NCBI GenBank assembly: GCA_020696385.1
Contig: JAEHCQ010000009.1
Coordinates: forward strand, 1 to 48,415
Length of the DNA: 48,415 nucleotides
Source of the DNA: Methanobacteriota archaeon
GTDB taxonomy: Archaea > Thermoplasmatota > Thermoplasmata > SG8-5 > JAGLSY01
Direction: 5' to 3'
Below are positions 1,232 through 1,796 of this stretch, one piece after another. A program made the position numbers and the translations under genes. Positions within the stretch are counted from its first letter, which is position 1. Each line of letters starts with the position of its first letter. Under the pieces are notes generated by a model that did not search any database, was not told the DNA's origin, and saw only the letters and a program-made list of their open reading frames with translations.

Positions 1232-1318
1232 CGCCGAGGACGGGACTCGAACCCGCGAAGACTGCGAAATCTAGTTGGTCTTCAGCCAACCGCCTTAACC
1301 GGTCTTGGCTACCTCGGC
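1232..1318 (-). tRNA. Class II tRNA with Ser-type body and GAA (Phe) anticodon, copy 1
   Basis: Minus strand: GCCGAGG TA GCC AAGACCGGTTAA GGC G GTTGG CTGAAGA CCAAC TAGATTTCGCAGTCTTC GCGGG TTCGAGT CCCGT CCTCGGC G. Complete cloverleaf, long variable arm, G73, CCA not encoded. Confidence 0.88.
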
Positions 1319-1320
1319 AT

Positions 1321-1335
1321 AGGAAATTATTTATG
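1321..1335 (+). promoter_or_regulatory. Putative BRE/TATA for antisense sRNA 1
   Basis: AGGAAA-TTATTTATG ends about 23-24 nt before the first base of tRNA complementarity (1359), which is archaeal TATA-to-TSS spacing. Confidence 0.5.
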
Positions 1336-1358
1336 CCCTTTGTTGCATATGATTTAGT

Positions 1359-1445
1359 GACTGCGATGTCTAGTTGGTTTTCAGCCATTCGTTGGTTGGC
1401 TACCAGGGTTTCCCGCATTCCCTAACAAAAATGCGGACTTTCTTT
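1359..1445 (+). ncRNA. Putative antisense sRNA to tRNA copy 1
   Basis: GACTGCGATGTCTAGTTGGTTTTCAGCCATTCGTTGGTTGGCTACC is complementary to the V-arm, anticodon arm and D-stem of tRNA 1. It is followed by a CCGCATT/AATGCGG hairpin and CTTTCTTT. Confidence 0.6.
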
Positions 1446-1477
1446 ATAAACCATCATTGCAGGTGAGCGAAAGTATT
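1374..1477. repeat. 104-bp direct repeat, copy 1 (copy 2 at 1857-1960)
   Basis: Manual alignment of 1374-1477 with 1857-1960 shows 3 mismatches. Each copy lies immediately 3' of a tnpA stop codon. Confidence 0.92.
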
Positions 1478-1484
1478 GTTTATC

Positions 1485-1550
1485 TCACTTTTTAACAATA
1501 CTGGCTCTTGTTCCGTGATCATACCTCTGCACAGCAATGTACTTCCCCAC
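1485..1550 (-). pseudogene. tnpA: 3'-end remnant of a second tnpA
   Basis: Translates VGKYIAVQRYDHGTRASIVKK*, versus VEKYIAVQRYDHGSRPSVVQKK* at the end of the intact TnpA. Confidence 0.85.
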
Positions 1551-1635
1551 GGAAGCCTTTTCTTTTGCCCTCGCTCCTCTGGCTCACCCTCCAAAAGAAC
1601 AAGTATTCCAATATCGACCAAACAAGTTTGGAAAA

Positions 1636-1692
1636 TAGATGCGCGAAAACACGCATCTAAAAAAGAAAACTCGGGTGAGCCTGCTCACTCGG
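1636..1692 (-). terminator. Two hairpins with T-tracts downstream of tRNA copy 2
   Basis: Minus strand: CGAGTGAGC-AG-GCTCACCCG-AGTTTTCTTTTTT, then TAGATGCG...CGCATCTA-TTTT. Confidence 0.6.
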
Positions 1693-1710
1693 TTCTCTGT
1701 GCGGACACTG

Positions 1711-1796
1711 CGCCGAGGATGGGATTTGAACCCACGAAGACAGCAGTGCCTCATTGGTCTTCAGCCAATCGCCGTTACCAGCTTGGCTACCTCGGC
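1711..1796 (-). tRNA. Class II tRNA with Ser-type body and GAA (Phe) anticodon, copy 2
   Basis: Minus strand: GCCGAGG TA GCC AAGCTGGTAAC GGC G ATTGG CTGAAGA CCAAT GAGGCACTGCTGTCTTC GTGGG TTCAAAT CCCAT CCTCGGC G. Compensatory pair changes relative to copy 1 in the anticodon stem (G-C to A-T) and T stem (C-G to T-A). Confidence 0.88.

Follow-up and report, generated by a model that had tools for sequence, protein, structure and literature searches.

At the locus level, we describe two transfer RNA (tRNA) genes and the small sequence units around them in the genome of a Methanobacteriota archaeon (GTDB lineage Thermoplasmatota; Thermoplasmata; SG8-5). The window –the whole stretch of DNA analyzed here, 48,415 nucleotides– is the entire 48.4-kb contig JAEHCQ010000009.1 (our contig C50) of an assembly of 2.28 Mb in 50 contigs, 94% complete. 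Two tRNA genes and no others were called in it by ARAGORN, at 1231-1318 and 1710-1796 of the minus strand, each as 'Phe (gaa)'. The Rfam tRNA model (RF00005, gathering score 29) matched each of them at full length. No other Rfam family scored above its gathering score anywhere in the window, and a relaxed threshold applied to positions 1100-2500 returned the same two genes only. The features of the locus are collected in Table 1.

Table 1. Features at the tRNA locus, in window positions
Feature	Positions	Strand	Basis
tRNA 1, class II, G73, anticodon GAA, G37	1232..1318	-	ARAGORN; Rfam 56.8 bits; family model R1 102.9 bits
tRNA 2, paralogue of tRNA 1 (~80% identical), same anticodon and discriminator	1711..1796	-	ARAGORN; Rfam 57.1 bits; R1 101.5 bits
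Partial copy of tRNA 1; plus strand is the predicted 'anti-tRNA' body	1359..1404	+	Repeat family D4, local alignment; antisense pairs best with its own tRNA
Partial copy of tRNA 2, same architecture as 1359-1404	1839..1887	+	Repeat family, local alignment, antisense pairing
Purine-rich stretch and A/T octamer (like a B recognition element and TATA box), pointing from tRNA 1 to the copy	1322..1334	+	Octamer centre 30 nt from the homology boundary
A/T octamer (TATA-like), pointing from tRNA 2 to the copy	1808..1815	+	28 nt from the homology boundary
Inverted repeat (7-bp arms) followed by a T-rich tail (7 T in 12 nt), terminator-like, unit 1	1413..1448	+	Only two in the genome; arms covary in relatives
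Same inverted repeat and T-rich tail, unit 2	1896..1931	+	Within the block 97% identical to unit 1 (family D1)
IS200-type Y1 transposase gene, 143 aa, only full genomic copy	1965..2396	-	Pfam Y1_Tnp 100.5 bits; orthologues adjoin the tRNA unit in relatives
Remnant of another transposase copy (its C-terminal part), upstream of unit 1	1488..1634	-	tblastn 43% identity over 56 aa; repeat family D3
Multi-copy short repeat (probable miniature mobile element) just downstream of tRNA 2	1550..1692		blastn matches on 11 other contigs

Both genes are intact and share a 7-bp acceptor stem (GCCGAGG/CCTCGGC), the discriminator G73, a GCC/GGC D-stem with G18-G19 present, a 5-bp anticodon stem, a variable region of 17 nt with a 5-bp stem, and a normal T-arm. 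The anticodon loop reads CUGAAGA, which places U33 before the anticodon GAA and G37 after it. Substitutions that distinguish the two copies in their anticodon, variable and T stems compensate one another, as read from their alignment. A preliminary description of this locus, made from the letters alone, had reported two intact tRNAs with serine identity elements and a Phe anticodon set in a perfect 5-bp stem, their pairing kept through compensatory changes; ARAGORN, Rfam and our direct reading of the sequence bear this out, down to each listed feature (acceptor, G73, D-stem, long variable arm, GAA).

The two tRNAs are additional to a full canonical complement. With introns allowed, ARAGORN found in this genome a canonical 73-nt tRNA-Phe(GAA) with A73 (contig C22), all four serine isoacceptors (GGA, CGA, GCU, UGA), and tRNA-Leu genes for UAG, GAG and CAG plus one intron-bearing gene; the set is archaeal, with several intron-bearing genes. 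Since canonical Phe, Ser and Leu tRNAs are all present, the two tRNAs of the window are extra. When the serine hydroxymethyltransferase encoded in the window was aligned to the Methanocaldococcus enzyme, its Phe residues fell on Phe at 13 of 20 positions, and the other seven on M, V, A, Y, H, L and Y, none on Ser, which indicates that UUY means Phe in this genome. The preliminary description had named a separate canonical tRNA-Phe and an ordinary meaning of the Phe codons as checks of its reading, and both are in place. For the synthetases, there is one seryl-tRNA synthetase (SerRS), of the bacterial type (class II core and Seryl_tRNA_N arm), among four class II core matches in the genome, and one PheRS alpha subunit; no dedicated extra synthetase paralogue was found in the 94% complete assembly. 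A gene for the alpha subunit of methyl-coenzyme M reductase was not found in the genome either, and we do not regard the organism as a methanogen.

At the family level, a DNA search of 41 related genomes retrieved full-length matches in six other genomes (five called GAA and one GAG by ARAGORN), and the weaker matches were ordinary tRNA-Ser. An exact pattern scan that covered one genome per prokaryote species returned 13 stretches: eight class II GAA tRNAs of the same family, one locus from Bathyarchaeia and four chance bacterial matches. The NCBI titles of the eight are Thermoplasmata, Methanomassiliicoccales and 'Methanobacteriota' archaeon, and include one Candidatus Hadarchaeota metagenome-assembled genome and one unclassified archaeon. 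The same pattern found further metagenomic members, including a second subfamily with a different acceptor stem; it was absent from the viral contigs scanned, and an origin in viruses was set aside. A covariance model built from the family sequences (R1) placed members of at least 82 bits in 11 of the 22 genomes of the order. A twelfth member, with an insertion in its T-loop, brings the carriers to 12 of 22, in at least four families of the order. All 12 carriers have the canonical tRNA-Phe, as do 19 of the 22 genomes. The family is conserved but accessory, and patchy within the order.

The cloverleaf is maintained by covariation. In nine homologues, 98.6% of 207 pair cells were kept, and double-sided changes occurred in 8 of 23 pairs with every helix represented, a result that none of 500 shuffles reached. 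RNAalifold preferred a different, non-cloverleaf fold, which we rejected: its helix 9-14/30-35 showed no double changes and only 88.9% of its cells were paired. Over the 21 genes that we tabulated, the anticodon is GAA in 18, GAG in two and CAG in one, and a serine anticodon (NGA or GCU) in none. G37 and a variable region of 15-19 nt with a paired stem are present in all 21, U33 in 19 (C33 in the other two), and G73 in 19 of 20 members, one gene being cut by a contig end. Also kept across the family are U8, G18-G19, the T-loop and the discriminator. This covariation, together with conservation across families of the order, supports the earlier proposal that selection rather than decay has shaped the genes.

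Some members carry insertions. A homologous T-loop insertion is common to two members of different genera, with the flanking exons intact. Different inserts of about 48 nt (L027/L033, genome G016) and about 65 nt (L113, from a metagenome) occupy an identical position, and each is flanked by a repeat of GCCGA, the pentamer with which the tRNA starts; they may mark either an insertion hot spot or an acceptor-stem intron. At the Bathyarchaeia locus (L020/L114), a tRNA-like gene with the acceptor GGGCCCG and the anticodon GAA ends in G73 and CCA; its variable region is long, and its D-loop and T-loop each seem to contain an insertion. As its acceptor stem differs and it did not reach an E value of 0.001 with R1, this gene is excluded from the family counts; a class II GAA tRNA may have arisen there independently.

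For the isotype, the body of these tRNAs is closest to tRNA-Ser. Among the best matches of R1 that are not members, all 13 loci examined within the order were tRNA-Ser, and so were all ten examined in other orders of the class (six GGA, four CGA; about 20 further matches at 75-80 bits stand outside this count). In the genome of the window, R1 ranked Ser(GGA) first (67.0 bits), followed by Leu(GAG) (64.2), Ser(UGA) (63.0), Ser(GCU) (62.6), Leu(UAG) (57.5) and Leu(CAG) (52.1), with canonical tRNA-Phe lowest (46.7). Sequence profiles were trained as well, on 29 canonical Ser and 19 canonical Leu genes from the clade, after dropping tRNAs longer than 92 nt (intron-bearing), two mis-called or partial genes (L012, L042), a family member (L045) and identical duplicates. 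Leave-one-out separation was error-free, and the Ser profile outscored the Leu profile in 13 of 13 members (20.6-44.9 vs. 13.3-30.9 bits). Both the model ranking and the profiles make serine the nearest isotype, as the preliminary description had expected, although on the Ser profile the members fall outside the canonical range.

By eye, the body looks mosaic: its acceptor stem and discriminator are serine-like, and so is the variable arm in its layout, with one unpaired base before the stem of the arm and two (UC) after it, as in local tRNA-Ser. The D-arm matches local tRNA-Ser(CGA) as well as tRNA-Leu, and the T-arm of some members is that of tRNA-Leu(GAG). Thus, the earlier wording 'as in archaeal tRNA-Ser' holds for the nearest relative of the body but not for a typical tRNA-Ser. 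The GAA members share GAA and G37 with tRNA-Phe, but their long arm and G73 depart from the 5-nt variable loop and A73 of the canonical gene; G73 likewise separates the family from the local tRNA-Leu genes, which all have A73. Derivation of the family from tRNA-Ser, with Phe or Leu anticodons, is the best explanation of these data.

Recognition by SerRS can be compared with reported determinants. For archaeal SerRS of both types, G73 is the strong determinant, followed by G30-C40, and the anticodon plays no role; for the methanogen type, G1-C72 and the base of the extra arm also matter (PMC9976931). In Haloferax tRNA-Ser, G73 blocks LeuRS (PMC9976931). Both G1-C72 and G30-C40 (columns 32/42) are invariant in nine of nine sequences, and the long variable arm is flanked as in tRNA-Ser. 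Since this identity set is kept and SerRS is blind to the anticodon, serine is the most likely amino acid to be charged.

We propose that the members are charged with serine by the single bacterial-type SerRS of the genome. Once serylated, they would read UUY (or CUY/CUG) through a G37-type anticodon loop, in competition with the normal tRNA-Phe or tRNA-Leu, and the outcome would be a low level of serine inserted at Phe or Leu codons. Serylation and use on the ribosome are what we infer from a serine identity set combined with hydrophobic-codon anticodons throughout the family. Taken with the arrangement of their flanks described below, we hold the view that these genes are serine-charged missense decoders with slightly better than even confidence.

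Several points weigh against this proposal. The profile scores of the members lie far below the canonical Ser leave-one-out minimum of 58.1 bits and their D- and T-arms are partly Leu-like, which means that recognition by SerRS is not guaranteed. One metagenomic member (L104) has A73. Archaeal and eukaryotic PheRS reads G34-A35-A36, and some charging with Phe is possible. Finally, serine at Phe codons should be harmful, and this lessens the certainty that these tRNAs act in translation.

The sequences upstream of the tRNAs are organized in the same manner in both units. On the tRNA strand, each gene is preceded by a 104-nt block that is 97% identical between the units, against about 80% for the tRNAs. 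Three elements lie in it: a promoter-like motif, in which ACTTTCGC is followed after about 16 nt by a palindromic TATA box; an inverted repeat whose arms are 7 bp long; and a partial copy of the tRNA. Represented in the copy are the D-arm, the variable arm and, of the anticodon arm, the loop and the 3' stem strand. The inverted repeat has a 10-nt loop, and the one in unit 1 also overlaps the predicted start site of the minus-strand promoter; its occurrence only at the two units in the whole genome led us to reject a dispersed role of the kind known for repetitive extragenic palindromes. A C/D-box RNA in the leader was rejected as well, a C-box-like motif being visible by eye in only some members.

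This arrangement of motif, repeat and copy precedes every member of the order, and a partial copy flanks every member examined, including those of Hadarchaeota and the second subfamily. In its variable-arm part, each copy tracks the tRNA to which it belongs. For 13 of 16 flanks, the antisense sequence pairs more strongly with the cognate tRNA than with any other (mean -82.6 kcal/mol, vs. -63.7 for non-cognate pairs). At the Hadarchaeota locus and in the second subfamily, the copy is the anticodon-arm hairpin plus part of the variable arm, exact or nearly so, and the Hadarchaeota copy shows compensatory stem changes of its own.

A conserved A/T box stands about 16 nt before the tRNA. At this distance it is too close to serve the tRNA, and on the other strand it reads as a purine-rich stretch and a TATA-like octamer pointing toward the copy. 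In 19 of 20 members, 25.5-31.5 nt separate the octamer centre from the copy boundary, where shuffled spacers lead one to expect 3.8 such members; the distance from octamer to tRNA varies from 8 to 104.5 nt. Even where the tRNA is 60-105 nt off, the box keeps to the copy, and it does so at three loci that have 48-110 additional bases in front of the tRNA. Past the copy and hairpin, the opposite strand has a T-rich tail (5-9 T in 12 nt) in 12 of 12 members of the order. Pure T-runs of 6-13 bases directly follow the hairpin that complements the anticodon arm at the Hadarchaeota locus, L106, L107, L116 and two L030 copies. On the tRNA strand these runs are A-runs, for which we know of no role before the copy, whereas T-runs are archaeal terminators.

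The partial copy is therefore probably an antisense gene, judging from its sequence architecture. The small gene on the opposite strand would comprise a TATA-like box, about 27 nt of spacing, the complement of the tRNA segment, and then a hairpin, a T-run or both. From it would come an RNA of some 40-90 nt that matches the entire seven-base anticodon loop with a complementary loop of its own, with complementarity extending into the variable arm. We infer that this RNA is transcribed and holds the tRNA or its precursor in check.

The evidence for the opposite strand has its own weaknesses. We saw no T-run at the L104 copy. In members of the order, the T-rich tail overlaps the palindromic TATA of the sense promoter, and those 12 cases do not separate the two strands. 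A/T octamers are common in these spacers, some loci have several, and the 20 loci are related, which means that the shuffle test overstates the outcome. As a control, we compared 42 canonical tRNAs of the genome, and eight of them also have partial copies of themselves nearby: Ala CGC, Ser GGA, Glu CUC, Arg CCU, Arg UCU, Leu CAG, Thr GGU and Ser CGA, on contigs C11, C22, C33 and C46. These are 16-22-nt duplicates of 5' or 3' ends, 69-206 nt away, seven of them exact and that of Leu(CAG) nearly so. Unlike the internal, diverged and conserved copies of the family, they look like footprints of small insertions that entered tRNA genes and restored them.

The strongest competing account concerns only this antisense half. 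The copy could be a neutral relic whose likeness to the tRNA is maintained by gene conversion, or part of a long 5' leader transcribed from the sense promoter upstream, in both cases with no antisense RNA made. The well-formed promoter-like motif lies on the tRNA strand, upstream of the inverted repeat, and also precedes the transposase gene. The repeat and the 5' part of the copy are the segment that is so much more alike between units than the tRNAs, which looks like gene conversion, and the control shows that partial tRNA copies arise easily in this genome. What a relic or leader does not account for is a copy at every member examined, deeply divergent ones included, with a different extent and its own compensated hairpin; a TATA spacing fixed to the copy and not to the tRNA; and runs that resemble terminators on the opposite strand only. 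We regard this account as a real possibility, though one that falls short of even.

Beside the second unit lies the IS200-type transposase gene. It belongs to the Y1 (HUH) family, as expected of IS200/IS605 elements, but one full copy and one remnant do not make a multi-copy element, and paired sub-terminal hairpins are lacking, the inverted repeat being found on one side only. Orthologues with 54-80% identity are present in 15 of the 22 genomes of the order, with about one copy in each. Nine of the 12 carriers have the transposase gene no farther than 2.1 kb from the odd tRNA (157-2040 nt), in either orientation, and three carriers have none nearby. Six genomes have the transposase without the tRNA, and neither the inverted repeat nor a tRNA stands beside it there. 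The link between transposase and tRNA is thus strong but not obligate, and the relatedness of the genomes inflates it. Genes resembling toxin-antitoxin systems are also found near some family loci.

This linkage raises the possibility that the tRNA-shaped gene and its copy do not decode at all, and are instead part or target of a mobile element (a landing site, an end structure or a recombination substrate), or a decoy or primer. The closeness to the transposase, the patchy presence of the family and the anticodon that is not strictly fixed would fit, as would the frequency of small insertions duplicating tRNA ends in this genome. A bacterial allo-tRNA(UAU) has been suggested to be non-translational and tied to transposons or toxin-antitoxin systems (PMC5389517). 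Within the tRNA itself, nucleotides 34-39 (GAAGAC) are complementary to GUCUUC on the 3' side of the variable arm in nine of nine sequences, and the complementarity tracks the anticodon variants (GAGGA/UCCUC in the GAG members, AGGAU/AUCCU in the CAG member); this could reflect hairpins in single-stranded DNA. That pairing competes with the variable-arm stem, which accounts for the same changes. Against a role outside decoding, the L-fold and the anticodon-loop nucleotides are all kept with covariation in all stems, the transposase occurs without the tRNA in the six genomes mentioned above and is lacking near the tRNA in three carriers, and the inverted repeat is confined to the two units. Moreover, the neighbours of family tRNAs in other genomes are housekeeping genes (Kae1, GluRS and a NUDIX protein), which indicates that the module is chromosomal. 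We consider this alternative unlikely.

The least probable account is that of a cognate spare tRNA-Phe, charged by PheRS through GAA despite G73 and the long arm, and harmless, for instance as a nuclease-resistant spare. Anticodon bases are major PheRS determinants, the anticodon loop is identical to that of canonical tRNA-Phe with G37 as its base there, GAA is retained in most of the genes, and the toxin-antitoxin-like neighbours would suit a resistant spare. We regard it as quite improbable on four grounds: A73 is missing in 19 of 20 members; canonical tRNA-Phe is the most distant tRNA scored; GAG and CAG members occur in genomes that also keep canonical A73 tRNA-Leu(GAG) or tRNA-Leu(CAG); and LeuRS does not read the anticodon, with G73 a reported antideterminant (PMC9976931), so that the trait shared by the family is the serine set and not the anticodon.

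The serine-charged decoder and the antisense gene could be parts of one system, a module linked to the near-single-copy IS200-type transposase gene. Such an RNA-only module of two genes would pair a Phe/Leu decoder that mistranslates by design with a dedicated antisense RNA, derived from the anticodon and variable arm of the same tRNA, that silences it through loop-loop pairing. This combined reading is tentative, and we would sooner doubt than accept it. If true, it would provide switchable mistranslation, or an addiction pair similar to toxin-antitoxin systems with the tRNA as the toxin, and versions of it would exist in several archaeal phyla.

Among known systems, the bacterial allo-tRNAs are close in concept. 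They combine serine identity (a long variable arm and charging by SerRS) with non-serine anticodons, and they are accessory, patchy and located near transposon-related and toxin-antitoxin genes (PMC5389517). A role in translation has been doubted for some of them (PMC5389517). They differ by their 8/4 or 9/3 layout of acceptor and T stems and bacterial hosts (PMC5389517), whereas the family described here is archaeal, has Phe or Leu anticodons and keeps a 7/5 layout. The preliminary description had already drawn this parallel while noting the standard fold, and the covariation backs the 7/5 layout. Unlike allo-tRNAs, the family has archaeal-type T-loop insertions in some members and a flanking partial copy in all.

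The tRNA-Ser(CAG) of CTG-clade yeasts (PMC9502446) has a serine body, a leucine anticodon, G37 and an unusual position 33. In those yeasts the codon has been largely reassigned and the competing tRNA-Leu(CAG) lost; here, by contrast, canonical tRNA-Phe and tRNA-Leu remain and Phe codons mean Phe. The likeness lies in the one CAG, two GAG and two C33 members of the family. Natural mistranslating tRNAs often replace U33 by G33 or A33, which is said to damp decoding (PMC11415595). The nev-tRNAs of nematodes are also class II, bear the anticodons of other amino acids, are conserved within a clade and coexist with the cognate tRNAs (PMC3333845). They differ in being eukaryotic, with leucine-type bodies and Gly or Ile anticodons, and they are not known to have an antisense partner (PMC3333845). 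In humans, the G35A variant of tRNA-Ser-AGA-2-3 is a serine tRNA with a Phe anticodon that inserts Ser at Phe codons, so the predicted chemistry works in cells (PMC12993449, PMC9956149). That variant is a recent single-base polymorphism with the anticodon AAA instead of GAA, and it has no family with a body of its own (PMC12993449, PMC9956149).

For the antisense half, the candidate module resembles antisense control modules in having a small loop-complementary hairpin RNA, encoded beside its target and ending in a U-run. In type I toxin-antitoxin systems and plasmid copy-number control, the antisense RNA has a hairpin loop complementary to a loop of the target, ends in a U-run and has its target adjacent. 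The known targets are mRNAs or primers, and to our knowledge none is a tRNA. The candidate RNA would also come from a separate partial copy and not from the opposite strand of its own target. Only the logic is that of a type I toxin-antitoxin system: there is no peptide gene, and the target would be a tRNA. In the literature searched, which included excerpts of the Methanomassiliicoccales genome paper (PMC4153887) and left aside supplementary tRNA tables, we found no archaeal family of this kind and no tRNA-directed antisense RNA.

Natural tRNAs whose body and anticodon do not match are raw material for changes of the genetic code and for regulated mistranslation. Bacteria (allo-tRNAs, tRNA-ProX), yeasts, nematodes and human variants have provided the known cases; from the nearest analogues the present family is set apart by an archaeal host, a standard 7/5 fold, Phe/Leu anticodons and the flanking copy. 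The family is suited to experiment, with a standard fold, three hydrophobic-codon anticodons within one clade and the canonical competitors present. If serylation is true, it would offer a direct system to study how cells tolerate, limit or use Phe/Leu-to-Ser ambiguity, and it would make the spread of such tRNAs by mobile elements testable. The conserved neighbour, in turn, may be the first dedicated antisense regulator of a tRNA.

Other repeats were observed around the locus. The multi-copy repeat downstream of tRNA 2 is about 145 nt long and rich in inverted repeats, with copies on contigs C33, C11 (632370-632513), C44 and C48, among others. Another copy lies directly downstream of canonical tRNA-Ser(GGA), and the repeat looks like a miniature mobile element that lands beside tRNA genes. 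In the first 1.2 kb of the window, repeats stand about 700 bp apart (258-302 and 964-1008); comparison of window 297-608 with locus L026 shows them again, three to four times over, downstream of the tRNA orthologue in G002, a genome of the same genus.

The motif ACTTTC[G/A]C followed after 12-24 nt by TATA is rare, with five regular-expression matches in the genome. It was found at 1443-1474 and 1926-1957 (minus strand), at C46:144778 and at C49:19224, ahead of both tRNA units, of a VapBC-like pair and of a HEPN-like gene. Variants of it precede the transposase genes (window ~2400-2450) and the restored tRNA-Ser(CGA); mobile or accessory genes may share it as a regulatory signal. Finally, in the transposase genes at L117 (G011) and L122 (G013), the codons of the HUH region (…AEDH…) resemble the tRNA anticodon arm (GGCUGAGGACCA); they match the family model weakly (E 0.27-0.37), and the resemblance is probably a coincidence.

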